33,654 bases of DNA from a virus (taxonomy: Duplodnaviria > Caudoviricetes), in the IMG/VR virus record IMGVR_UViG_3300037420_000377, positions 1 to 33,654 of that record. One strand, given 5' to 3'. Position numbers and translations under genes: made by a program. How positions within the stretch are numbered: the first letter of the stretch is position 1; each line of letters starts with the position of its first letter. The notes under the pieces are model-generated. The model worked only from the letters and a program-made list of their open reading frames with translations. It was not told the origin of the DNA and made no database searches. Below are positions 4,019 through 31,581 of this stretch, one piece after another.

Positions 4019-4032
4019 ACTCTACGTTTTAG
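4019..4032 (-). promoter_or_regulatory. Putative phage RNAP promoter, copy 1 (replication genes)
   Basis: CTAAAACGTAGAGT, identical at 8548-8561 and 31568-31581; each copy lies just upstream of a gene module. Confidence 0.75.
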
Positions 4033-5131: not shown

Positions 5132-5410
5132 TTAGGTTTGGGGAGTTGAGCCCGTGCAGCCGCCGATCACATCCAGCAGCCCACCGGCATATTCACGCAA
5201 AGCAACGTCGGACCCGGCAGCGATCTTGACGTCCTTCTGGGCCTGGCCGGTGAGCTTGTCGCCGACCTTCGGAGGCATCGCGGCCACGAGCTTCTTGAAC
5301 TGCTCAGGGGTGACGCAGTGAACCGTCTGGATCCGCGTCTCGATCTTGGGTCCAGAGCTGCAGCCGGTCACAAGGGCCAGGGCGGCAGCGAGTGACAGTA
5401 GTCGTCTCAT
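5132..5410 (-). CDS. Lipoprotein, probable o-spanin (Rz1-like)
   Basis: Signal peptide MRRLLSLAAALALVTG-C with lipobox, extra cysteines, near an Rz-like gene. Confidence 0.7.
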   Translation of the reverse strand: MRRLLSLAAALALVTGCSSGPKIETRIQTVHCVTPEQFKKLVAAMPPKVGDKLTGQAQKDVKIAAGSDVALREYAGGLLDVIGGCTGSTPQT

Positions 5411-5595
5411 ATCGAGTTCTCCCGTGTGTGGAAGTCGCGAAGCCCCCGGGCGATGGTGAAAAACTGCGAGGCCTCTGCCAGCACCAGGTTCTTATCGCGC
5501 AGAGAGTTGACCTTCTTCTCATTGAGCGCTCGTACCCGGTTGACGGCAGCAAGCTCACACTTGTCTGCGATGGGGAGGAGGTCGTCGTGCTTCAT
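5407..5595 (-). CDS. Hypothetical protein (62 aa)
   Basis: ATGA overlaps with both neighbours. Confidence 0.7.
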   Translation of the reverse strand: MKHDDLLPIADKCELAAVNRVRALNEKKVNSLRDKNLVLAEASQFFTIARGLRDFHTRENSI

Positions 5596-5930
5596 ATCGT
5601 GTTCCTCAGCAGCTCGAGGTCGGGGGTCGTGCAGTCCGGTCCCTCCGGGGCGTCGTGGATGTGCTGGACGATGGTCTTGATGCGCTCGGGGCCTTGGACG
5701 ACCTTGGTGACGGTCTTTTCGGAGATGCCGTGCTGGACGTCTTGGCGGGTGGTCATGTCGCTGATCTGCTGGTTCAGCTCGACGATCCGCTGCATGTGCT
5801 TCTGGTCGTCAGCCTTCCAGTAGTCACGGCTGTGGTCGAGGGCCCAAAAGCCGCCGATCACGGACGCCAGGATGGCGAGAGGCACGGCGATCTTCACCCA
5901 GGGAGGGATGATCAGGTCTGTGATGTTCAT
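5592..5930 (-). CDS. Probable i-spanin (Rz-like)
   Basis: Single N-terminal TM segment, helical periplasmic region, C-terminal Cys (PDC); AGGAG RBS. Confidence 0.65.
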   Translation of the reverse strand: MNITDLIIPPWVKIAVPLAILASVIGGFWALDHSRDYWKADDQKHMQRIVELNQQISDMTTRQDVQHGISEKTVTKVVQGPERIKTIVQHIHDAPEGPDCTTPDLELLRNTI

Positions 5931-5958: not shown

Positions 5959-8511
5959 TCAGGCAAATGCGTACAGGGCGTCGTCGATCACACTGAGGTC
6001 CAGGTCGCCCTTCTCGGGCATTGGGGGGAGCCTCGACGGATCGCTCAGGTTGGCCTCGGCACTCCGAAGGACCTCTTCGAACGGGTCGTAGTTCTCGTAC
6101 ATGCCGATGAAGGCCTTCCGGATGATCCCGAAGAACTCCGCTGTGCGCCCTGCGTGGGTTCCGAAGCTGTCGTGGATCAGGGCCAGCGAGTGGATCCCGG
6201 CGTCCTTGGCCTCGAGGACCGTGAGCATCAGATGTGCGCCGTCCATCGAGTGAATGACGTTGGGCGCCACTGCCGAGCGGGCCTTGTCCTTATCGATCCG
6301 GTCGAGTGGCTTGGTCCTGATGTTGGCCCTCACCTGACGGATCACGCCAGCGTCAGTCACCTTGTCCCTCACCCCGGCATCCGTGACGGGCATGCGGCGG
6401 TCGTACAGGAACAGCTGGACGGACTTGGTGTCCCACTCGCTGTACTTGTGCATCACCGGGAGGCCGATGGGGGTCGTCCAGACAAGCGGCTTCTTCTCGT
6501 GGGCCAAGGCTCCAGCGACCTTCTTGAAGAACGTCATGCCGTCGGTCGCCCGATGCACGATGTTCGTCACGCTCCGGTAGACCTTGGCCGCGATGTACCC
6601 AGAGGCCGCGAAGCCACCGTCGCCGTCGACCGCGTAAGGGTTCGCGGGGATCTTGCCCTCGAGGACCTTGAGGTTCAGCGGGGCCATGAGGTCCTCCATG
6701 AGCTGCTGGCGGAAGCCGTACTGCTCGCTCGAGTAGGGGAACGTCATGACGTTGCGCTTGACCTCCTTGCGACCGATGCCAGCGGCAAGGACGATCTTGG
6801 CGATCTCGGAGCCCTCGGAGGCGTCACGCTCCATCGTGGCTACGACATCGTCGGCTACCGTTTGGTAGAGGTCCGCAGGGACTTCCGAAGGCGTGAGCGA
6901 AACGAGCGCCGCTTCGTCCTCTGCTCGGAGCGCCGCGGAGTAGTGCTGGAGTCCTGAGTTAGATCCGTCAAGCGCAACAGGGATCCGGCTCTCGAAGTCT
7001 TCAGATCGTCCGGATTGAACCCAGTCAGCGTACTCGAAACAGGCGGCAAGGAAACTGAAGGGCTTATCGGCAGTTCCCCACCAGTCGTGGGTTCCTTGAG
7101 GATCCGCGGCTGCACTGAGGATTGCCGCTTCGTTGGCGGCGACCCAGTCGAGCCGGTCGTCGAAGGATCGCTTGCTGACCTTTTCGAAGTCGCCAGTGTT
7201 AGCGAGATGGATCGAAAGCCATGCTCCACCAGACTCGCCAAGAGGGCATCCATCAGCGAACTGGAGGAGCGCTTTGACGTGGTCCGACCGTTGGTGGCTG
7301 AAGTGGCAGACAGGGTAGACCCGTCCGCGAAAGTCAAGGTTATGCGGGAGATAGAATCGATCATAAGCGGACAGCTCCCGTGCGGTTTCGATGTCTCGGT
7401 CGGTGATGCTCTTGTCGGCAGCAATCGACCGGTTCCGTTCTTCGATCTGACGGAGCTTGATACGGTAACCCTTGCGCTGTTGGTCGTCCATGCCCTCCCA
7501 GAGGCTCTCAGGGAGTCGCTGAGGACGTTCCAGGGACTTCCGCAGCGGAAGCTTGCCGATCTCGACGTCGTGCTTGTAGGCCCACTCTACGACGTCCAGG
7601 ACGCGCCCGTTGATCGACCAGGCGACTGCCTGAACGTAGTTGAGGGCCTCCATGACGTAGTCGAGCTGACCGTTGTCGATGGCCTGAGCGAGCATCCGCT
7701 TGTGGTCCGGGTGGTGGGTCCGGACGAGCTTCACGCGGCGAGAGGACTTCTCGTCGTAGTAGCAGCCGGTGTTCATGTCCGTCCAAGGCCGCGGTGGGAC
7801 GACCATCGGGCGATAGACGGGCTGGTTCCACGCGAGGGTCTCGCGGAGGTCGATCAGAAGCTCGGCGCCCTCGTTCGTGAGGCGGGCGACGGTCTGCATC
7901 CGGCCCTTCTTGGAGATGGTGGCCAGCTCGAAGATTTCAGGCAGGGCGAGGAGGACGGCGTTGAGGAGCGGTTCCCCGATGCGGACCTTGAAGTCGGTCT
8001 CCCAGGGCTTCCACTCGATGTTGTCGTCGGCGAGCTTCTTGAAGGCCTTCTTCCGCATGCGGCTCGAGCCCTGCTTGGCGACCCGGTCGTGGATCCGGCG
8101 AGCGACCTTACGACCGCGGGCCTCCTCCAGCTCGAGGGCCATGATCTCCTGCTCGACGGTCGTCCCGATGTGGACCTGTACCTGAGTGGTCGAGTACCCG
8201 ATGGTGACGCCGTTGAAGGTGGAATTGAGGGCGATGTAGGCTAGGACGTCGGGGTCCAGTCTCTTAAGGGTCTTAAGTCCCGTATGAGTCTTCCCTTTGC
8301 CCTTGTTGTCATTCTCTTCGATCCACTTAAGGACCTGTAGTGTAACTAAAGGTAGGGCTCCCTTGATCAGCTTCCGTCCCTCGGCGGTGGCGTGGGCACC
8401 CTCGTTCGTCTGGGTGTTCTTCTGTTCTTCCAGGTAGCGGTAGTACCCCTCCGATGTTGCCTTCTGTTCGAGACGCAGCTGGGCGTCCAATAGCTCTTGA
8501 TCCGGTTGCAT
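5959..8511 (-). CDS. T7-type single-subunit DNA-dependent RNA polymerase
   Basis: 850 aa with DFRGRVYP, motif A DGSNSGLQHY, motif B RKEVKRNVMTFPYS, APNVIHSMD, motif C IHDSFGTH. Confidence 0.98.
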   Translation of the reverse strand: MQPDQELLDAQLRLEQKATSEGYYRYLEEQKNTQTNEGAHATAEGRKLIKGALPLVTLQVLKWIEENDNKGKGKTHTGLKTLKRLDPDVLAYIALNSTFNGVTIGYSTTQVQVHIGTTVEQEIMALELEEARGRKVARRIHDRVAKQGSSRMRKKAFKKLADDNIEWKPWETDFKVRIGEPLLNAVLLALPEIFELATISKKGRMQTVARLTNEGAELLIDLRETLAWNQPVYRPMVVPPRPWTDMNTGCYYDEKSSRRVKLVRTHHPDHKRMLAQAIDNGQLDYVMEALNYVQAVAWSINGRVLDVVEWAYKHDVEIGKLPLRKSLERPQRLPESLWEGMDDQQRKGYRIKLRQIEERNRSIAADKSITDRDIETARELSAYDRFYLPHNLDFRGRVYPVCHFSHQRSDHVKALLQFADGCPLGESGGAWLSIHLANTGDFEKVSKRSFDDRLDWVAANEAAILSAAADPQGTHDWWGTADKPFSFLAACFEYADWVQSGRSEDFESRIPVALDGSNSGLQHYSAALRAEDEAALVSLTPSEVPADLYQTVADDVVATMERDASEGSEIAKIVLAAGIGRKEVKRNVMTFPYSSEQYGFRQQLMEDLMAPLNLKVLEGKIPANPYAVDGDGGFAASGYIAAKVYRSVTNIVHRATDGMTFFKKVAGALAHEKKPLVWTTPIGLPVMHKYSEWDTKSVQLFLYDRRMPVTDAGVRDKVTDAGVIRQVRANIRTKPLDRIDKDKARSAVAPNVIHSMDGAHLMLTVLEAKDAGIHSLALIHDSFGTHAGRTAEFFGIIRKAFIGMYENYDPFEEVLRSAEANLSDPSRLPPMPEKGDLDLSVIDDALYAFA
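6855..7364 (-). CDS. Candidate overprinted gene in the +1 frame of the RNAP gene (169 aa)
   Basis: GGGAG 10 nt before ATG 7364; the open frame coincides with a zone of anomalous third-position usage in the RNAP frame. Confidence 0.4.
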   Translation of the reverse strand: MIDSISRITLTFADGSTLSATSATNGRTTSKRSSSSLMDALLASLVEHGFRSISLTLATSKRSASDPSTTGSTGSPPTKRQSSVQPRILKEPTTGGELPISPSVSLPPVSSTLTGFNPDDLKTSRAGSLLRLTDLTQDSSTTPRRSEQRTKRRSFRSRLRKSLRTSTKR

Positions 8512-8547
8512 CCTTACTCCCGATGCGCTTGAGGCCAGTCCAGTGTA

Positions 8548-8561
8548 ACTCTACGTTTTAG
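8548..8561 (-). promoter_or_regulatory. Putative phage RNAP promoter, copy 2 (upstream of the RNAP gene itself)
   Basis: Exact 14-bp repeat CTAAAACGTAGAGT ending 36 nt before the RNAP ATG. Confidence 0.75.
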
Positions 8562-8636: not shown

Positions 8637-8672
8637 AAAAAGGGGCCGGAAGCACCTACGCCTCCGACCCCT
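8637..8672 (-). terminator. Intrinsic terminator between the int/attP region and the RNAP gene
   Basis: AGGGGUCGGAGGC-6nt-GCUUCCGGCCCCU followed by a U run. Confidence 0.85.
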
Positions 8673-8720: not shown

Positions 8721-9083
8721 CTAAGCCCTTTGCTTCTCCCAGACAAGCGTGTCGTCGTCGATCAGGACTTGGACCGCTGTCGTCTTGTCGTCTTCCCACA
8801 ACGCTTCGCCCCGGGCTAGGGCCTCGTCGAGGTTAGAAAAATGCTGCACACTTCTAACAACAAAACGATCCGGTCCCCCGCGCAGAGGTCCCTCACCGGG
8901 CGCTAAGTCGTTGTCGGCTTGGATCTTTGACCGGATTTTAAGTCTCCAGCGTCTACCGGTTCCGCCACGTCCGCTGATCTCAGCTCCCTCTAGAGGCAGT
9001 GCATTCTCGAGAGCAGCCCCGTCGGTCAAACGTGCGGGAATCCCCCACGCATCTGTCCCCCACATCGGGTTGCTCGCAGACAT
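8721..9083 (-). CDS. attP-spanning hypothetical protein (120 aa), coupled to the integrase
   Basis: AGGAG 5 nt before the ATG, TAATG overlap with the int stop, open through the attP core, ends about 50 nt before the terminator. Confidence 0.6.
   Translation of the reverse strand: MSASNPMWGTDAWGIPARLTDGAALENALPLEGAEISGRGGTGRRWRLKIRSKIQADNDLAPGEGPLRGGPDRFVVRSVQHFSNLDEALARGEALWEDDKTTAVQVLIDDDTLVWEKQRA
8934..8974 (-). mobile_element. attP core: 5' half of tRNA-Leu(UAA)
   Basis: GCGGACGTGGCGGAACCGGTAGACGCTGGAGACTTAAAATC is an acceptor 5' strand, Leu-type D arm and anticodon loop CT-TAA-AA. No T arm follows, and it lies about 110 nt downstream of int. Confidence 0.85.
9041..9063. repeat. Direct repeat TCCCCCAC x2, candidate integrase arm-type sites
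   Basis: Copies at 9041-9048 and 9056-9063, between the int stop and the attP core. Confidence 0.4.
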
Positions 9084-10120
9084 TAGGTCTCCTGACAACT
9101 CTGCTCAAATAAAGCGGCGACCTTGCCCACGGCCTTCTGGAGGTCCTCGTTGCAGACGTGGGCGTAGCGGAGGGTCGTCTGGATGGACTTGTGACCCGCC
9201 AGCTCCTTGATGATCCGGATGTCGACCCCGGCCTGGACGAGCCTCGTGCAGAACGTGTGGCGACAGGCGTGGAACACGAAGTCCTCGTCATGGTCCAGGG
9301 CCATCACTGCCTTCGCCTTGTCCCACTCGTACCTCAGCTGACGCTCGGTCGGCATCCCGATCTCGCGAAGGTACATGAGGTCCGCGTGTGTCTCGGGGCT
9401 GATGGGGATGGAGCGAGCCTTTCGGTTCTTCGTCTTCCACAGGTGGATGTGGTCGGCGGTGACCTGAGCCTCGACGCCCTCCACAGCCTCGTAGATCTCC
9501 CCGCGGCGCATGCCTGTACGGATCGCCACTCGGACGAGGGTGTCGTAAGGATCCGGCAGGACCGAGTAGAGGCCCTTCTCTTCGTCCGGAGAGATCCAGC
9601 GGATGCGTCCCTCGTCCTCGTCGAGCCACTCGATCTTGGGCATGGGGGTCTGCCGGTACCCGCGCTCGATGGTCCACTTGAGGAACTTGGAGAAGGCCGC
9701 AAGGTACCGGTTGACCGTGGAGTCACCCAGCGGTCGACCCTTGGGCCCTGAGGCCTTCAAGGTCGTCACCAGCTCGTCGATCAGCTTGGTGCTGACGTCG
9801 TCGATGGGCTTGTCCCCAAGGACATCCACGATGTGCCGGAGCTTCTTGAAGTTGCCGTCCGAAGACTCCCGGCCACGCCACAAGGACTGCTCGGCCCTGT
9901 CGATCAGATCGGACATGCGCTCCGTCTGCTGCGGGAGGTATCGCGTTGTCTTCTCAAGGGCCGGGGCGCCGCTCTCGAGCTGCCTGATGAAGGATCGCTC
10001 GAGGGCCTTGGCGGACTTGTAGTCGTCGGCTCGGCCCTTGAGGACCTGACGCCCCCTCTGGACCTCCACGCGCCAGCGCCCGGTCGGCTTCCCGTCCCGC
10101 TTATCGGCGTAGATGGACAC
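9083..10120 (-). CDS. int: Tyrosine recombinase (integrase)
   Basis: Catalytic set TGMRRGE, TKN, HACRH, LAGH, TLRY; N-terminal arm-binding-like GRWRVEV; GGAGG RBS. Confidence 0.97.
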   Translation of the reverse strand: MSIYADKRDGKPTGRWRVEVQRGRQVLKGRADDYKSAKALERSFIRQLESGAPALEKTTRYLPQQTERMSDLIDRAEQSLWRGRESSDGNFKKLRHIVDVLGDKPIDDVSTKLIDELVTTLKASGPKGRPLGDSTVNRYLAAFSKFLKWTIERGYRQTPMPKIEWLDEDEGRIRWISPDEEKGLYSVLPDPYDTLVRVAIRTGMRRGEIYEAVEGVEAQVTADHIHLWKTKNRKARSIPISPETHADLMYLREIGMPTERQLRYEWDKAKAVMALDHDEDFVFHACRHTFCTRLVQAGVDIRIIKELAGHKSIQTTLRYAHVCNEDLQKAVGKVAALFEQSCQET

Positions 10121-10510
10121 CTAGAGGACCTCCACCAGCTCATTGAAAAACAGCCTCCCCGCGTCGGAGAGGTAGTAGCTGTTCTTCCTAAGGTTGGACT
10201 GGTCCTGCTCGCGAACGACGAGCCCGAACCCGCTGCCTGGACCTCCGGTTCGACTTCGGTCGGACAGTGAGAGCATGTAGCGCGACATGTTGGACAGGGA
10301 GATGCCTGAGGCGTCTGCCAGCTCCTGTAGGCTCTTGCCCTCGTTGAGCGCCACGGACACGAGCGCGTGGGCCAGAGGGAGAGGAATGGTATCCTCGATA
10401 TCACGAAAAAGCCGGAAAGCCCTATCGAGCTTCCGGATCTTCTTGAGCGACGGCCCTTCCACGGGCGCTACCGACAGTGGCACGGTACTGTCGGGGACGA
10501 CCTGAAACAC
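10121..10510 (-). CDS. MarR-like winged-helix regulator
   Basis: AGGAGG RBS before GTG 10510; SLQELADASGISLSNMSRYMLSL HTH, wing GLVVREQD...RKNSYYLSDAG; abuts int. Confidence 0.85.
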   Translation of the reverse strand: MFQVVPDSTVPLSVAPVEGPSLKKIRKLDRAFRLFRDIEDTIPLPLAHALVSVALNEGKSLQELADASGISLSNMSRYMLSLSDRSRTGGPGSGFGLVVREQDQSNLRKNSYYLSDAGRLFFNELVEVL

Positions 10511-10600
10511 ACTACTTTCCTCCTGTGTTCTTGTTGCACCCCCTGAGGGCTTGGCTCCCTCCAACGCGAACAGCTTATTGGTTGATCCCAATTTTGTTAT

Positions 10601-14180: not shown

Positions 14181-14819
14181 TTAGTCGTCCTGAGTGTCGT
14201 AGGCCGGTGAGATGGCCATCGGGCCTGAGAAGGCCTCGTTGATCGTCTGATCCTGGATCTCGGCGAGGGCCTCCTTGAACTTGGAGGCGAACCGGTCGAG
14301 GCGCTCGTCTTCGAAGTGATCCGCGGCGTACTCAGCGGCCCCGTAGACCAGGGCGTCGATGCAGCTCACGGACCACTCGTTCTCGTCGGTGTCGACGGCA
14401 AGCGGCTTGGCGGTCCCGGTGTACAGGAGGCGGACCTCGGTTGTGTCGGATGGGACCGGACGGAGCCGGATCTGACCGCCGATCTGCGTCCAAATGAGCG
14501 GAGTGCCGATCTGGGTGTCGGGGATCCTGATCAGCTCGCCGATGGGGACCCGGGTCAGCTCCTGATCGCCGACGTGGATCGCTTGGACCTCAAGGAAGTC
14601 GTTCGGGACCAGGAAGGCGCCCGCGGCGCTCGCGTCGAGCGTGAAGCTGACGTACTTGTCCATGAAGGACGGGCGCGGGGCATACTTGAGGGGGTCAATC
14701 TGGGGCCAGCGCTCGAGGCGGTCTTGCGCCTGATTGATGAACTGACCGGCAAGCGTGTCCGTGAAATCGGTACGGTTGATCAGCGCCCGTAGGTAATCAC
14801 GGGCTTGCTTGAAGTTCAT
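14181..14819 (-). CDS. Head-tail adaptor protein
   Basis: 212 aa after the capsid genes; INRTD...FINQAQDRLER, PNDFLE, DALVYGA pattern of podophage adaptors. Confidence 0.75.
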   Translation of the reverse strand: MNFKQARDYLRALINRTDFTDTLAGQFINQAQDRLERWPQIDPLKYAPRPSFMDKYVSFTLDASAAGAFLVPNDFLEVQAIHVGDQELTRVPIGELIRIPDTQIGTPLIWTQIGGQIRLRPVPSDTTEVRLLYTGTAKPLAVDTDENEWSVSCIDALVYGAAEYAADHFEDERLDRFASKFKEALAEIQDQTINEAFSGPMAISPAYDTQDD

Positions 14820-14831
14820 GTGAGGGGCGTC

Positions 14832-15158
14832 CTAGAGGCGCTTGGAGGTCGCGATCAGTCGGTCCATGTCGAGGGACTGCAGACGCTGAATGATGTCCGC
14901 GACGGTGATGTTCTTGTCGAAGATGTTGAAGCCCTGGCGAAACCAGTGGTCGACCACGACGGTCGGGATGCGGGCCGCGAGGGCGAAGTTGCCTAAGGCG
15001 TTGTGATCCTGGATGTCGCGAATGGCCGCGATCTCGTCCAGGAAGTCGGCGGGGATCTCTTGGGTCCGGACGATGCCGGTGAGGTTTTCATCCGCGTCGA
15101 ACGTGAAGTCGATCTCCGTGTCGAGGAGATTCGCTTCGCTCCAGTTGTTGGATTGCAT
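14832..15158 (-). CDS. Hypothetical virion-module protein
   Basis: 108 aa between the capsid terminator and the adaptor; QEIPADFLDEI...ARIPTVVVDHWFRQG. Confidence 0.8.
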   Translation of the reverse strand: MQSNNWSEANLLDTEIDFTFDADENLTGIVRTQEIPADFLDEIAAIRDIQDHNALGNFALAARIPTVVVDHWFRQGFNIFDKNITVADIIQRLQSLDMDRLIATSKRL

Positions 15159-15167
15159 TTAGGTACC

Positions 15168-15208
15168 AAAAAATAGCCCCAGGGAGCCGGTGAGGGCCCC
15201 CTGAGGCT
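15168..15208 (-). terminator. Terminator after the major capsid gene
   Basis: 14-bp stem AGCCUCAGGGGGCC/GGCUCCCUGGGGCU then AUUUUUU; same position as T7 Tphi. Confidence 0.9.
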
Positions 15209-15221
15209 GGGAGAGACGTGA

Positions 15222-16106
15222 TTACGTCAGGGCGTTGATCAGGCCCGAGGACAAGAAGTTCTTGTTCTTGAGACCCTTTTCGCCGACGATCATGTGCTTC
15301 TCATTGTCGCCGGTCTTCGCGAGCTGGGTGCGCGAGAACGGACGCAGAGTCACCTCCGACCACATGCTGCCGTCGAGCAGCCAGGCGTTGGTCGACTTGA
15401 GGAAGCGGTTCAGCACGACGCGGAACTCGCCGTACGGGGACACGTAGAGGTCCACGACGTTCACGAGCTTGCTCTCGTTGCGGAAGTCGCGCTGACGACC
15501 GCTCGAGGCAGTAAAGCCAGCGACGATGCGAGCATCTGCGGGCTTGATCATGAACACGTTCGGCTCGGCGCCTTCGCCGTAGCAAGCCTCGGCGCAGTCG
15601 AGGAGCATATCCTCGGTGAGCGCAGCGGTGCCTCCGGCAATCGTCACCGCGGCGTCGACCATCTGGTCAGCGGAGGCGGTGCGGCGAGCAGTCGCGGTGG
15701 CGTCACCAGCAACCTTCGCCTGGCTCACGCCGACGTACGCACGTTCGACGTCGCGCTTGACCTCGGCCATGCCCTTCGCGAGCTGGTACGCGGTCTCCTT
15801 GCGACGACCGTACTGGTCGACAGCGTCTTCGGTCGCCGAGACCTTGATGGTCTTCTCGAAGATCTGCGTGTAGTTGTCGCGCAGGACGGGCGGCACGAGG
15901 GTCGCCTCGGTCGCGTCGAAGCCTTCGACGTTCGCATTGTCCTGAGCGTCCGCGAGGCTGTCCTCGAGCCACTCGAAGTGACGGTTGCGGGTCTTGTCCG
16001 AACCGATCAGCGTCTGGAACGGCGTCTTGGTCGGGCTGATGTTGGAGATGATATCATCGACATCCTCTTTGATGCCGACGGTATCGTAGGTCGTGTAAGC
16101 GGCCAT
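15222..16106 (-). CDS. Major capsid protein, DUF5309/SU10-type
   Basis: YDTVGIKEDVDDIISNISPTKTPF, FEWLEDSL, NYTQIF, LAKTGD; follows the scaffold and precedes a terminator. Confidence 0.92.
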   Translation of the reverse strand: MAAYTTYDTVGIKEDVDDIISNISPTKTPFQTLIGSDKTRNRHFEWLEDSLADAQDNANVEGFDATEATLVPPVLRDNYTQIFEKTIKVSATEDAVDQYGRRKETAYQLAKGMAEVKRDVERAYVGVSQAKVAGDATATARRTASADQMVDAAVTIAGGTAALTEDMLLDCAEACYGEGAEPNVFMIKPADARIVAGFTASSGRQRDFRNESKLVNVVDLYVSPYGEFRVVLNRFLKSTNAWLLDGSMWSEVTLRPFSRTQLAKTGDNEKHMIVGEKGLKNKNFLSSGLINALT

Positions 16107-16140
16107 TGTTTACAGTGGTTTCTTGGTCTGAAGTTGGGGC

Positions 16141-17193
16141 TTAGTCTTCGTCGCCCTCTGCCCACCGGGCCATCAGTGCCTCAGCAGCGGCATCGGTAGA
16201 GCCGGTGTCACGCAGCTTGCGGAGAGCCGCATCGGCGCCCTGCTTGCGACCGAGGTCCTGAGAGGCCTTGGTCTTCGACTTCAGCGGCTTCTTCGAGGCC
16301 TTCGTCTTCTTCTTGATCTGCGTGTTCGCCTTCGACTTGGCCTGGACGTAGCGTCGGGCCATATCGATGATCTTGAAGGCAACCGGGTCGACCATCATGT
16401 CGACGGCCTCCTGGTCCATGCCCTGCGAGACCGCGAAGCTGCGGATGTCGTCGTATAGGGCGGGGGACCAGCCTTCGATGCCGGTGTCGGGGTTGGACAG
16501 GACGTCCATGCACTGCTTCGCAGCTTCCATGAGCTGCTCTTGGCGAGCCTTCTGCGTCTGCGAGAAAACGTCGTCGACCTGGTTCTTCAGGAACATGACG
16601 TCTTCCGCGGCAGCACGGGCCTCGGTGCGTAGTGCGACGAGTTCATCGGGTTCGAGCTTCGACTGGGCGACAACCCAATCGATCTTCGAGTACGGAGCGT
16701 AGCGCTCCAACGCCTTCTTCAGCAGCGCCTCGGAGGCAACTGTGAAGCGGGCACCCTCGTCTTCCGTCTTCTTGCGAAGCTCGGCGACTTCCTGAGACTT
16801 GCGAGTGAGAGCCGCTTCCTGGCCGTAGAGTCGCGTGAGATCCTTTACGGATACAGTGCGCTCCTCGCCGTCGACCTTGACCTTTACGACGGTGTCGAGG
16901 TTCTCGAGGACGTCGGGTTCATCGCCCTCGCCTTCGTCTTCCTCGTCGCCTTCGTCTTCGTCATTGCCGTCGTCTTCGGAGCCTTCCTGGTCCTCTTGGT
17001 CCTCATCGGATCCTTCGGCGGATTGGTCCTCGTCGCCCTCTTCGTCGTCCTCAGTCTCGGCGGACTGACGAGAGGTTTCCTCATCTTCATCCCGGTCGGA
17101 TAGCTTGTCAGCGTCCTTCCACTGGGCGAGAAGGGCTTCAGCCGCATCAAACGGCTGCGTGTCGTGCTCGACGCCCTCGCGGGTAGTCGACAT
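16141..17193 (-). CDS. Capsid scaffolding protein
   Basis: Very acidic N-terminal third, VKVKVDGEERTVSVKDL...LTRKSQEVAE motif, basic C-terminus. Confidence 0.88.
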   Translation of the reverse strand: MSTTREGVEHDTQPFDAAEALLAQWKDADKLSDRDEDEETSRQSAETEDDEEGDEDQSAEGSDEDQEDQEGSEDDGNDEDEGDEEDEGEGDEPDVLENLDTVVKVKVDGEERTVSVKDLTRLYGQEAALTRKSQEVAELRKKTEDEGARFTVASEALLKKALERYAPYSKIDWVVAQSKLEPDELVALRTEARAAAEDVMFLKNQVDDVFSQTQKARQEQLMEAAKQCMDVLSNPDTGIEGWSPALYDDIRSFAVSQGMDQEAVDMMVDPVAFKIIDMARRYVQAKSKANTQIKKKTKASKKPLKSKTKASQDLGRKQGADAALRKLRDTGSTDAAAEALMARWAEGDED

Positions 17194-17220
17194 AGTAGAT
17201 GTCACCTTTGTTTTCGGGCG

Positions 17221-17502
17221 TTATTCAGCGGCGTCGTCGCTGGAGTTCACCATCCGCTCGATCTCGTCTTTTGCTTGGACGCGAGCGTTGAGTTCCGCTT
17301 CGATAGCCTTAAGGCCCTGATAGAAATTGTAGTTGGCCTCTCGCCCGCTGGTGTCGGTGGGCTTGGACTCGGTCCATTGCGCCCATGACTCGAGGCAGAG
17401 GGATTTGATTACGCTCTGGAACGTGTCGTCGCTGAGGAGAGCTTGAGCCTTCAGGCCCTCCTCAACGATATCCATTTCCTTCGCGGTGAGATCCCGCGCC
17501 AT
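17221..17502 (-). CDS. Small helical protein between portal and scaffold
   Basis: 93 aa, G.KAQALL.D..F...RE..Y pattern. Confidence 0.8.
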   Translation of the reverse strand: MARDLTAKEMDIVEEGLKAQALLSDDTFQSVIKSLCLESWAQWTESKPTDTSGREANYNFYQGLKAIEAELNARVQAKDEIERMVNSSDDAAE

Positions 17503-17505
17503 ACG

Positions 17506-17856
17506 TTAGTACAGCCGGGGACGACCGGTCATGTTGCCCATCCCGAACGCGGGCGGGGCGAAACTGCCTCCCATGGCGGGAGGGACGATGCCGGTGTTGC
17601 CCTGTGCGGGCGCAGCGCCGCCTAGGCCGAACCGAGCAGCGAGCTGCGGGAAGCGGGCCTGGAGGCTGGCTAGTAGATTGGGCTGCTGGAGCATGCTGAG
17701 GATGCCCCCACCGCCCAGAGCACCGCCACCGCCGAACGCGGGAAACGGGCTGGCCATCCGGGGACCGGGGCCCCCCTGTCCGCGCTGGGCGAACGCCTGG
17801 GCCATCGGGCTCGCAGCGGGTCCGCCTTGCGGATCCATCATTGTTGGTGAGTACAT
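17506..17856 (-). CDS. Gly/Pro/Ala/Met-rich low-complexity protein
   Basis: 116 aa, fits between the portal and the next gene with 3-nt gaps on each side. Confidence 0.7.
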   Translation of the reverse strand: MYSPTMMDPQGGPAASPMAQAFAQRGQGGPGPRMASPFPAFGGGGALGGGGILSMLQQPNLLASLQARFPQLAARFGLGGAAPAQGNTGIVPPAMGGSFAPPAFGMGNMTGRPRLY

Positions 17857-17859
17857 TGG

Positions 17860-19905
17860 TTATCCGTTCGGACTGATGATTGCGCTGGACTTGATGTTCT
17901 CGTCGGGTGCTTCGTTCTCGGCACGTTCGGCGAGTTCCATCTCCTTCTCAGCGACCTCAATGCGGTTCGCGGTCTCGGCGTCCTTGCGGTCGGCGTCACG
18001 CGCCTTCAGCATGAACTCGAGGGTCTGGAAGCGCTTCTCAAAGTCTTCGCGTACCTCGGCCAGCTGCGCTGCATGCTCCTCCTTCATTGCGGAGATCTGG
18101 AGCTTGCCGTCGATTTCCTTGGCCTGAGCTTGCTTGAGGGCGATCTCGGCCTGAACCATCGGATCCGGCTCCGGAGGAGGCACGGTCGCCGGGTTCGCAA
18201 TGAACGAGTCGACGTCCTTGTGACCCTTGGTCTCGAGGACGCTCTTGTACACGTTGTAGCGCTGCTGGGGCCCATACAGGTGTTGGACCTGAGGGTCGCC
18301 CGCGATCATCTGGTGGATGCCGAGCAGATCCTGGACGGTGGCGTCACGCTCACCGTAGCCGAGCTTGAGGTCGACCGTGGCATAGCACATGTGATCCCAG
18401 TCGGAGGGGTTCACAGGGACCCACTCGCCAGCGATCTTGAGCATGCGCTCCTTGGTCTCGTACTCCATCGCGAGACGGATGATCTCGACGTAGAGCGGCT
18501 TCAGGAACTGATTGGCGAACTCGCGGGCAATCGTCTTCTGACGGATCTGCGAGAGGCCGACCAGGTCCTCGACCATGCCGCGGCTGTTCTGCTTCGAGAT
18601 GGCGTCCTTGTTGAGGCCCTTGGACAGCCGTGAGACGCCGGTCGCGTCCTCCTTGTCGGTGTCCAGCATCTCGATGGTCTGGAAGACGAACGGGTTCATG
18701 TTCGCCTGGTCCAGCGGCATGATGCCGTCGGCCCGAGTGACGTTCACGATCCCGCCGATGCGGTTGTCCAGCAGCTCCCTCGGGTTGGTGAGGGCTCCGC
18801 GGACCACCTTGTAGCGCGGGTTGTTCGTGATCGTCGCGTGATCGATGATCGAGCGTGTCAGAACCGTCTTGGAGTTCTGGATCGGGATCGCCTTCTCGGC
18901 GAGGTTGGCGCCGTAGAAGCTGTGCGGGGTCGGAAGCGGGCAGAACGTGATGAACGGGTGCCGTTCGACCTGTTCGCGCTCCAGGATCACCTTCGAGTTG
19001 TCGTGGACGATGCGCCAGAGCTTCGAGGAGCCGCTGCCGTCGAGATCGAGACGGATGTACGTCTCGTAGATAACGAGGATCTCTTCGGCGCCGTCGCGGC
19101 GTTCGGACGTACGGCCAAAGCCGTCGCTCACCGGGTCGAAGCGCGTGATGCGCTCGGGATCCGTCTCGAGAGTGTTGTCGGAGCCGCGGGAGAGCTTGGC
19201 GATCTTCGCGGGGTCGTACCCCTCGGCCTTCAGCTCGCTGCGGGTCTTCTCCATGCGGCGCGTGATCTCGGCGCCCTTGAGCGTCTTGATCTGAGGGTTG
19301 ACGACGAACTCTTCCGCAGGGACAGGCTCGACGCAGATCTGGGAGTTGTCGACCTTCTCAACGACCGTGCCCGAAATGAGGCCAGTGTCTTCGTCGATCT
19401 CGATCTCGCCAGCCTCGAGCTTGTCGTTCTGGAGGATCGCGGCGAGTTGATCCTCGTCGATGTCCTTGAACTCACGCTCGATCTCGTCGATGCGCTCGTC
19501 CCAGTAGACCTGGGCGATGCCAACGCGAGCGGTGAGGCCGTCGTGGATCACGGCGCTGAACAGTGCGGTGCCGCTGTTGAGTTCGAACACCACGTGGTCG
19601 GCGTACGCCGTGGACATCCGAGCCAGCGGAACGTAGTCGGCTGCGTCCGGACTGAACTGGACGATGCCGTTCCCCGCTGAGAATGTCTCCAGGAGGTTGG
19701 CTTTCAGGCTCTCGACGGTGTCGAAGACGTCGGTGGAGACGTATTTCGAGTTACCGGCATGGACTGGCTTCGGGAGGACCCCGTTGTAGTAGTCCATGAC
19801 CTTCTGGCGCTCGCGGGCCAGCTTGGTATCGAGGAACTTGACGCCGCTCTGGATGGTCTCACGAAGGGACGCCAGGATGTCCTGGTCGGTCTTCTTTCGT
19901 GCCAT
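17860..19905 (-). CDS. Portal protein
   Basis: 681 aa right after terL (TAATG overlap); YYNG...SKYVSTDVFDTVE, TGVSRLSKGL, long C-terminal coiled coil. Confidence 0.9.
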   Translation of the reverse strand: MARKKTDQDILASLRETIQSGVKFLDTKLARERQKVMDYYNGVLPKPVHAGNSKYVSTDVFDTVESLKANLLETFSAGNGIVQFSPDAADYVPLARMSTAYADHVVFELNSGTALFSAVIHDGLTARVGIAQVYWDERIDEIEREFKDIDEDQLAAILQNDKLEAGEIEIDEDTGLISGTVVEKVDNSQICVEPVPAEEFVVNPQIKTLKGAEITRRMEKTRSELKAEGYDPAKIAKLSRGSDNTLETDPERITRFDPVSDGFGRTSERRDGAEEILVIYETYIRLDLDGSGSSKLWRIVHDNSKVILEREQVERHPFITFCPLPTPHSFYGANLAEKAIPIQNSKTVLTRSIIDHATITNNPRYKVVRGALTNPRELLDNRIGGIVNVTRADGIMPLDQANMNPFVFQTIEMLDTDKEDATGVSRLSKGLNKDAISKQNSRGMVEDLVGLSQIRQKTIAREFANQFLKPLYVEIIRLAMEYETKERMLKIAGEWVPVNPSDWDHMCYATVDLKLGYGERDATVQDLLGIHQMIAGDPQVQHLYGPQQRYNVYKSVLETKGHKDVDSFIANPATVPPPEPDPMVQAEIALKQAQAKEIDGKLQISAMKEEHAAQLAEVREDFEKRFQTLEFMLKARDADRKDAETANRIEVAEKEMELAERAENEAPDENIKSSAIISPNG

Positions 19906-31567: not shown

Positions 31568-31581
31568 ACTCTACGTTTTAG
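31568..31581 (-). promoter_or_regulatory. Putative phage RNAP promoter, copy 3 (late/virion operon)
   Basis: TAAAACGTAGAGTATTAG aligns in length and ends with T7 TAATACGACTCACTATAG; upstream of the whole structural block. Confidence 0.78.

Follow-up and report, generated by a model that had tools for sequence, protein, structure and literature searches.

We analysed the whole IMG/VR virus record IMGVR_UViG_3300037420_000377, a stretch of 33,654 bases that is ~80% complete and is called the window below, with a focus on its gene for a T7-like single-subunit RNA polymerase (RNAP) and on an open reading frame (ORF) nested in that gene (Table 1). The catalytic residues of the window RNAP align with D537, K631, Y639, and D812 of T7. 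The nested ORF lies wholly within the RNAP gene in the +1 frame; it corresponds to T7 residues 411-574 and takes in the DFRGR motif and the catalytic Asp515. The mapped stops and start confirm the outline given in a preliminary description of this DNA, in which the +1 frame was said to be open from 7586 to 6855 with an ATG at 7364. The bounding stops are at 7589-7587 and 6857-6855, a further stop is at 6842-6840, and three of the four GTA codons in the RNAP gene (codons 308, 552, and 557) create the +1 stops that bound the frame. The RNAP frame is family-wide and the +1 product has no family match, which marks RNAP as the older gene. An assembly error behind the ATG is unlikely because contigs from two other runs span it without mismatch (X5, 7120-7373; X7, 7330-7480), and four DNA sequencing runs gave identical pieces only, with zero variants within the nested ORF. 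Codons are numbered along the window RNAP (q), and L- and P-numbers denote the RNAP loci of relatives and protein relatives, respectively.

Table 1. Features of the RNAP locus and its surroundings in the window.
Feature	Position	Strand	Evidence or remark
T7-like single-subunit RNA polymerase, 850 aa	5959-8511	-	PF00940 E 1.8e-94; PHROG 414 E 3.8e-207
Nested +1-frame ORF, 169 aa, ATG to TAG	6855-7364	-	RNAP codons 383-552
N-terminal part (63 aa), conserved, predicted beta-beta-alpha-beta	7176-7364	-	similarity above RNAP-forced null; AlphaFold2
Tail, Ser/Thr/Pro/Arg-rich, variable, predicted disordered	6858-7175	-	not conserved in sequence; codon skew persists
Upstream open part of +1 frame, 74 codons	7365-7586	-	mildly rich in A/T-ending codons; TTG at 7424
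Shine-Dalgarno-like GGGAG	7375-7379	-	10 nt before ATG 7364-7362; formed by RNAP R-E codons
Two +1 TAG stops, five codons apart	6840-6857	-	each from rare GTA Val codon
Likely phage-RNAP promoter before RNAP gene	8535-8561	-	one of three exact 14-mer copies
Tyrosine integrase	9083-10120	-	PF00589 E 3.2e-19; upstream of RNAP, temperate architecture
Transcription regulator	10121-10591	-	phrog_9665 E 5.7e-14; upstream of integrase
Rz-like gene	5592-5930	-	phrog_1152 E 0.0036

The third base of an RNAP codon falls at the second position in the +1 codon. Across 6841-7560, 83 of the 240 RNAP codons end in A or T (A/T3), the same number as had been counted by hand, versus 82 of 611 in the rest of the gene; the neighboring 120-codon flanks, low as described, hold 11 (codons 181-300) and 10 (codons 571-690). 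Matched by amino acid to 15 other window genes, q383-552 has 63 A/T3 codons in 170 where 28.1 are expected (z 7.3), the upstream part q326-382 has 17 in 57 against 10.4 (z 2.3), and the tail codons of the nested ORF keep the excess (z 4.3 and 3.3). The nested segment is the strongest A/T3 segment among the 13 long genes of the window, with a log-likelihood ratio (LLR) of 24.1 versus 11.1 for the next. The skew falls on particular codons. GGA and CGA make up 12 of the 20 GGN/CGN codons inside the ORF and 4 of 77 outside (p 2e-7), and the same test on the same interval gave p<0.01 in 0 of 153 control genes and p<0.05 in 5. In a gene rich in G/C-ending codons (GC3-rich), the +1 frame is almost without Asp and Glu because these need GGA, CGA, or AGA; here, the +1 frame has 12 such residues in 170 within the ORF versus 2 in 511 in the flanks. 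Cys and Trp are reversed, with 0 in 170 versus 27 in 511. Every +1 stop requires an NTA or NTG RNAP codon, and these are found in none of the 28 Leu/Val/Ile codons of the ORF but in 27 of 114 in the flanks (p 0.0013, the lowest of 162 genes); the ORF region is also without Met. Across the overlap, RNAP codon use is distorted in favor of the second frame, which is one mark of an overprinted gene.

The GGGAG before the ATG at 7364 is the best Shine-Dalgarno (SD) sequence among the five +1 ATGs of the gene, with a pairing energy of -6.6 kcal/mol compared with -6.9 at RNAP's own start. The fold accessibility of the nested start is ordinary, and 23% of RNAP windows fold as weakly. An 8-mer promoter core at 7591-7584, 220 nt before the ATG, was considered as an internal promoter and rejected; it lacks both flanks, has a copy in 0 of 17 relatives, and is likely a chance match.

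The first 63 residues of the product, called the head below, are set apart from the rest, with 17 Leu, Ile, Val, Phe, or Met residues in 63 versus 35 in 511 in the flanking +1 frame. Its conservation was scored with the RNAP sequences held fixed, so that +1 similarity is read against an RNAP-forced null. The head exceeds this null between the window and L083 (z 3.0), L083 and L084 (z 3.0), and the window and L084 (z 1.9), as well as between the window and L142 and the window and L191 (both z 2.2). A profile search of the head against 1.84 billion proteins returned five matches, three of which are proteins predicted by gene calling, 119-126 aa long and starting at the same site; their identity is 53-55% to the L142 product and 22-32% to the window's head. 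Matches P0121 and P0125 were set aside as long Thr-rich repeat proteins. The 169-aa product has no match in Pfam or PHROGs, and no homologue of it was found among 395 word-sharing candidates or, with alignment A6, among 2926 candidates. Neither the window's head nor the L142 product was matched by tblastn in GenBank phages, none of 71 pattern matches in viral contigs (alignment A7) was confirmed, and the ESM Atlas gave no usable match to the product, which is uninformative either way.

AlphaFold2 predicts two strands (3-12 and 17-25), a helix (31-47), and a third strand (50-60) in the head, with a predicted local distance difference test (pLDDT) score of 67 and a predicted template modelling score of 0.39, and a disordered tail with a pLDDT below 50 for residues 61-145. 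Fold searches of BFVD and the PDB found nothing at E<=0.001; the weak BFVD matches are uncharacterised phage proteins of 50-70 aa at E 0.02 or worse. The best VIA row for the head is a de novo designed protein (Z 6.8, root-mean-square deviation 1.5, 58 aligned residues), and the predicted head may be a generic arrangement because its best fold match is a designed protein and no natural family. When the 63-residue head was modelled as a complex with RNAP residues 225-850, the score was 0.01, which is evidence neither way. No transmembrane helix is predicted in the window's product, whose best 19-residue hydropathy is 1.12, and it contains no Cys and no lipoprotein signal. By comparison, the +1 product tails at L084:756-1337 and L083:2627-3094 carry CxxC-type Cys clusters that are not present in the window's product.

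Relatives were gathered by protein-pattern scans of three collections, DNA-pattern scans, and genome searches over 401, 376, and 6 genomes; these genome searches added few close relatives. An RNAP frame was present at 194 loci, of which 131 non-redundant ones covering the core were kept, and 130 genes were ranked in a changepoint scan; a second sample of 119 loci gave 78 usable RNAP frames and 33 after redundancy removal. The ATG is shared at the same site in L083, L084, L085, L008, L142, L191, and L255. L083, L084, L085, and L142, only 33-62% identical, share the ATG with the window and resemble it in their open frame and codon skew, and many other relatives, T7 included, do not have this pattern. 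Twelve relatives have at least 50% identity, of which five carry the ATG (L083, L084, L085, L008, and L191); in four of these five the frame is open for 131-194 codons, and among the seven without it one is open (p 0.07). A local A/T3 rise is found in L084 (p 2e-6) and L085 (p 4e-4), is weak in L083 (0.045), and is not seen in L008 and L191, and the GGA/CGA excess is present in L084 (3e-7), L085 (0.004), L142 (0.005), L191 (0.014), and L083 (0.019). The nested frame of L084 contains 0 stops where 7.0 are expected. With the window excluded, six genes show an excess of +1 Asp/Glu at q383-500, and the frame is open across that interval in five of them, compared with 10 of the remaining 155 genes (p 2e-5); the figures for GC3-rich genes are 4 of 5 versus 10 of 88 (p 0.0016).

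The changepoint scan looks for A/T3 segments and is blind to ORFs. Its top five of 130 genes were the window (q326-557), L188 (q250-588), L142 (q395-489), L084, and L010 (q467-545), and in all five the segment overlaps with a +1 ORF that has a start codon. The segment ends coincide with start and stop codons in the window, L188, and L010. The six segments with an LLR above 12 contain 18 +1 stops where 39.2 are expected, versus 78 and 75.2 for +2 stops, whereas the remaining 124 genes have 969 +1 stops against 1028; the sixth segment, in L132 (q140-272), has 3 against 7.5. The second-ranked gene of the second sample, L255, repeats the stop-SD-ATG junction of L188, and no other gene among the 33 has so long a +1 ORF starting with ATG. 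Both L188 (1040-1603 and 1610-2068, plus strand) and L255 hold two tandem +1 ORFs in the RNAP gene with strong SDs; the first ends in a membrane-like helix and the second is conserved between the two, with +1 similarity z of 4.4 and 3.4 versus -1.3 to 2.1 in eight other intervals. A 101-aa +1 ORF at L010:2885-3190 (plus strand) has two hydrophobic segments, begins right after a stop, and matches the A/T3 segment. The best 19-residue hydropathy is 2.26 in L010 ORF2 and 2.01 in L188 ORF1, products different from the window's. In L142 (2720-2745), the SD before the nested ATG stands in an RNAP stretch unlike the usual Lys/Arg-Glu-Leu (K/R-E-L) run and may be a separate gain.

Eight GenBank records were also compared, seven of which, including T7 and LUZ100, are without the signal, while Rhizobium phage Pasto (L337, MT708545.1) is positive. 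Its RNAP gene holds an unannotated +1 ORF of 152 or 128 codons, from 10399 or 10471, with a weak SD, in which A/T3 is 45% versus 27%, GGA and CGA account for 9 of 24 codons versus 4 of 64, and 0 stops are found where 3.8 are expected. The similarity of the Pasto +1 product to the window's group is no closer than the null. The main text of the Pasto genome announcement does not mention a nested RNAP gene (PMC8407765). The nested ORF is narrower in spread than RNAP, as it is not found in the Novosphingobium-prophage clade, T7, LUZ100, or five more GenBank records. Stops scattered through this frame in homologues had been named in advance as a sign against a gene; many relatives do have them, and their codon use is flat, but no stop interrupts the frame in relatives with both the ATG and the skew. 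On these sequences, the nested gene is patchy across relatives rather than absent. A quick tree of 57 rows places the window and L084 in one 11-row group with L083 near and L085, L010, L142, and L188 apart, which appears compatible both with one old origin plus losses and with several births and does not decide between them.

A number of observations weigh against a nested gene. When synonymous codons are redrawn, the chance of no stop is 0.08-0.18 from the ATG and 0.03-0.11 from 7586, so that the open frame is real yet not significant alone. The stretch q383-500 is permissive for open frames anyway, because it is open in 16 of 162 RNAP genes versus 2 of 148, 1 of 130, and 0 of 141 in three other intervals. 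The ATG with its GGGAG stands where the preliminary description had put it, but the GGGAG is weak as evidence, since RNAP K/R-E-L codons yield a similar SD-like sequence, a by-product, in relatives without the ORF; over all genes, the frame is not significantly more often open where the ATG is present at codon 383 (5 of 33 versus 10 of 129, p 0.19). RNAP codons 1-90 (8242-8511, minus strand) are likewise A/T3-rich (30 of 90, z 4.6) with +1 stops inside. The codon tests were designed after the window's codon table had been viewed and then run unchanged on the other genes, and the Asp/Glu and GGA/CGA excesses are a single signal, not two; the latter is not significant in L188, L255, L010, L008, and L209. 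L188 itself was obtained with a biased DNA pattern demanding CTT and GGA, and the top A/T3 segment of the second sample, in L239 (q712-830), shows no stop depletion (5 versus 4.6).

The same holds for the product and its nearest relatives. The hydrophobic segments that had been called unlike the usual shadow frame are so in the head, but the product overall is still 58% Ser, Thr, Pro, Arg, and Ala, and the basic C-terminus is ordinary for the shadow frame (Lys/Arg in 20 of 107 residues versus 85 of 511). The +1 head in L085, L008, and L209 does not exceed the null in similarity, the tail shows no conservation (z 0.0-1.0), and control pairs had a mean z of 0.1-0.35 and a maximum of 4.1, with the core of window, L083, and L084 chosen after looking. 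The fold model is of middling confidence with no non-coding control alongside. L003, the closest relative with DNA (66%), has neither ATG nor skew, and in P0003 (68%) Met pairs force +1 stops at q433 and q463. Synonymous constraint, a check proposed earlier, was measurable only at 54-62% identity, there being no DNA for the 81% relative P0002; it gave a modest excess of +11 to +21% at q383-440 among the window, L083, and L084, but control pairs reached +15% and L085 had none.

Several other explanations have to be set beside an independently translated nested gene. The first is a ribosomal frameshift from RNAP, or an upstream start at TTG 7424, which would give a longer or fused product, and the 74 open codons before the ATG, the start of the A/T3 segment near codon 326 with its upstream excess, and the similarly open upstream frames of L008, L255, and L188 speak for it. 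Programmed frameshift products of the T7 10B or prfB type need a new frame that is open across a conserved shift site upstream. In L083, L084, L085, L142, and L209, however, +1 stops at codons 374-381 close the frame shortly before the ATG site (2-9 codons before it in the first four), and the upstream part in the window is poor in Asp/Glu (2 of 73), retains Cys/Trp (4 of 73), and offers only a weak ribosome-binding site at the TTG (-3.5). A frameshift product, which had been raised at the outset, is therefore improbable as a shared mechanism, but a frameshift in the window alone is possible; no formal search for a shift signal was made. We consider this explanation as a whole, upstream start included, unlikely.

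The rare codons might instead serve the RNAP mRNA or DNA itself, through pausing, RNA structure, or a binding site, with the open frame as a by-product. GGA and CGA are indeed rare in the RNAP flanks, codons 1-90 are skewed without a long ORF, and the region is permissive; but such a role predicts neither the purge of NTG and NTA, nor segments that end on start and stop codons, nor the stop-SD-ATG junctions of L188 and L255, nor the +1 protein similarity, and no promoter or terminator consensus lies within the A/T3 segment. We regard it as unlikely.

A patch recombined from an A/T-richer phage RNAP gene, open by chance, was the main alternative proposed at first and is now largely refuted, with very little probability left to it. 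The sharp edges of the A/T3 segment (codons 326-557), the unremarkable odds of the open frame alone, the existence of an A/T3 patch without stop depletion in L239, and the low support (0.38) for the window with P0002 in the 383-552 tree fit such a patch. However, the identity to P0002 is flat over six segments (80, 79, 81, 82, 83, and 81%), and in all four segment trees the window joins P0002 and then P0003/P0004. Of eleven relatives with 29-45% A/T3, nine favor GGT over GGA and ten favor CGT over CGA, and the window's patch does the opposite (GGA 8 to GGT 1, CGA 4 to CGT 0); a donor would also bring NTA/NTG codons and +1 stops, of which there are none, and the same site is skewed in lineages only 33-62% identical. 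It is highly unlikely, too, that the window phage carries the fading remnant of a gene once overprinted in its clade: the patchy distribution, the forced stops of P0003, and tail lengths from 71 to 194 aa would suit decay, but the window's skew is the strongest of 130 genes, its ATG, SD, and frame are intact, and decay should bring CTG and GTG back. Selection on the long antisense ORF (6958-8244, plus strand) can be dismissed, since its 428 open codons and the low in-register antisense stops of the six top segments (29 versus 47.6 expected) are offset by comparably long antisense ORFs in skew-free GC-rich relatives (605, 537, and 878 codons in L005, L164, and L111), by none that spans the region in L083, L084, L085, or L142, by a stop depletion that partly comes from the same CTA/TTA codons that would create +1 stops, and by the lack of any Pfam or PHROG match.

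The nested ORF is thus likely (probability about 0.8) a real overprinted gene, translated and under selection, because its start site and its distortion of codon choice recur in several distant relatives; the 169-aa protein first proposed is supported by codon-level and comparative tests. The full account, of an overprinted gene with its own translation and a small accessory protein that binds a partner, also appears probable. The site would have been pre-adapted, with an SD-like run, few forced stops, and an ATG one synonymous change off: a TAC-to-TAT change at Tyr383 before a G would create it. Ribosomes would then initiate at 7364 on the SD already supplied by the RNAP K/R-E-L codons, reading the nested ORF by independent initiation from the RNAP mRNA of the upstream phage promoter. 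Selection on the second protein would fill RNAP wobble positions with A or T, because these are the second positions of +1 codons; GGA and CGA (Asp/Glu) and CTT, GTT, and CCT (hydrophobic) would be favored, and NTG and NTA (stops, Cys, Trp) purged. The product would appear whenever RNAP is switched on, because the transcript would be shared, and hence along with RNAP at the onset of lytic growth. The small head of ~60 residues, predicted to be folded, would likely bind a protein partner, and the tail is predicted to be disordered. Our tentative first choice for its job, at somewhat less than even odds and purely by analogy with overprinted viral accessory proteins (PMC8227390) and T7 early inhibitors, is a host-takeover or counter-defence binder; a regulator of the lysis-lysogeny switch comes next.

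We also consider it possible, at slightly short of even odds, that the palm-encoding stretch of T7-like RNAP genes is a recurring birthplace of independently overprinted +1 genes, locked to RNAP expression and missed by annotation. On this reading, the window, L083, L084, L191, and perhaps L142 would share a soluble family with the beta-beta-alpha-beta fold, L188, L255, and L010 would have coupled ORFs in tandem that encode membrane helices, and the cultured phage Pasto would make an unrelated product; a lysis-lysogeny regulator is possibly among these proteins.

Nested +1-frame phage genes with an internal start are known in lambda Rz1 in Rz, T7 18.7 in 18.5, and phiX174 E in D. The window's ORF resembles these in its frame and internal start, but their hosts are spanin or scaffold genes and its own is the active-site region of an enzyme, and their products are lipoproteins or a membrane inhibitor, which the window's product, without lipoprotein signal or membrane helix, is not predicted to be. 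An embedded o-spanin of the Rz1 type was rejected, as the ORF lies in RNAP and lacks Cys and the Rz-like gene is separate; the low hydropathy speaks against a membrane lysis protein of the levivirus Sgl type. T7 gp2 is a small beta-beta-alpha-beta phage inhibitor of host RNA polymerase encoded by a stand-alone gene. The window's head has the same predicted strand-strand-helix-strand order in ~60 residues, but there is no sequence link and no significant structural match to any natural family, and gp2 was not among the matches listed in the fold searches. No report of a nested gene in a T7-like RNAP gene was found in the literature searched, which covered few subscription journals and no supplements.

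The nearest published case is that of the levivirus sgl lysis genes, which lie wholly inside the replicase gene, in its +1 frame, and have SDs of their own (PMC7693330). They show little mutual similarity, are sometimes two per genome, and arose repeatedly, mostly in poorly conserved parts of Rep and in few cases in catalytic motifs (PMC7693330). The window's ORF is likewise a small +1-frame gene inside a phage polymerase gene. In contrast to these genes of single-stranded RNA phages, it belongs to a double-stranded DNA phage and lies in the conserved palm of a T7-like RNAP, no membrane helix is predicted in its product, and endolysin and spanin-like genes are present separately in the phage. 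De novo overprinted viral accessory proteins are described as restricted in spread, atypical in codon use, disorder-rich, and fast-evolving (PMC8227390). The window's product shares these traits, but the examples compared are from eukaryotic viruses, with no T7-like RNAP case among them.

Besides the T7-like RNAP, the window encodes an integrase and a regulator, a single-stranded DNA-binding protein, endonuclease I, an endolysin, and SU10-type head genes; the SU10-type portal, capsid, and adaptor genes lie at 14181-19905 (minus strand). The endolysin (2090-2638) stands amid replication genes, distant from the virion genes, and the Rz-like gene with a lipoprotein-like ORF (5132-5930, minus strand) directly follows the RNAP gene. 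The window probably represents a temperate phage that infects a soil sphingomonad, because its nearest named relatives are Novosphingobium prophage RNAPs (55-58% identity) and its DNA is present in sequencing runs from soil and rhizosphere metagenomes. No RNA run was among the listed runs that contain it. A terminator-like hairpin at 8641-8672 (minus strand), at the boundary between the integrase region and the RNAP promoter, could shield RNAP from upstream transcription. A 14-base motif occurs in three exact copies (4019-4032, 8548-8561, and 31568-31581, minus strand), one of them 37 bases ahead of the RNAP start; look-alikes stand upstream of RNAP in L010, L001, and L086, and the LUZ100 record has an annotated phage promoter in the same position. 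The motif is likely a phage RNAP promoter driving the RNAP mRNA, and its place before the RNAP gene itself suggests positive autoregulation.

Few enzymes have been studied and engineered as much as T7-like RNAPs, whose gene is treated as single-coding. If the nested gene is real, a second gene runs across the DFRGR motif and the catalytic aspartate, and even an active-site region could accommodate a new protein. The nested start can be abolished by a single RNAP-silent base change, and the cultured phage Pasto bears the signal, which makes the reading directly testable; codon-optimised or recoded phage RNAP genes could delete a gene unnoticed. To our knowledge, the control of a self-amplifying polymerase in temperate T7-like phages is poorly understood. 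The finding, if true, would add unannotated early genes to these phages and would mean that the same spot in RNAP has been reused in several lineages.

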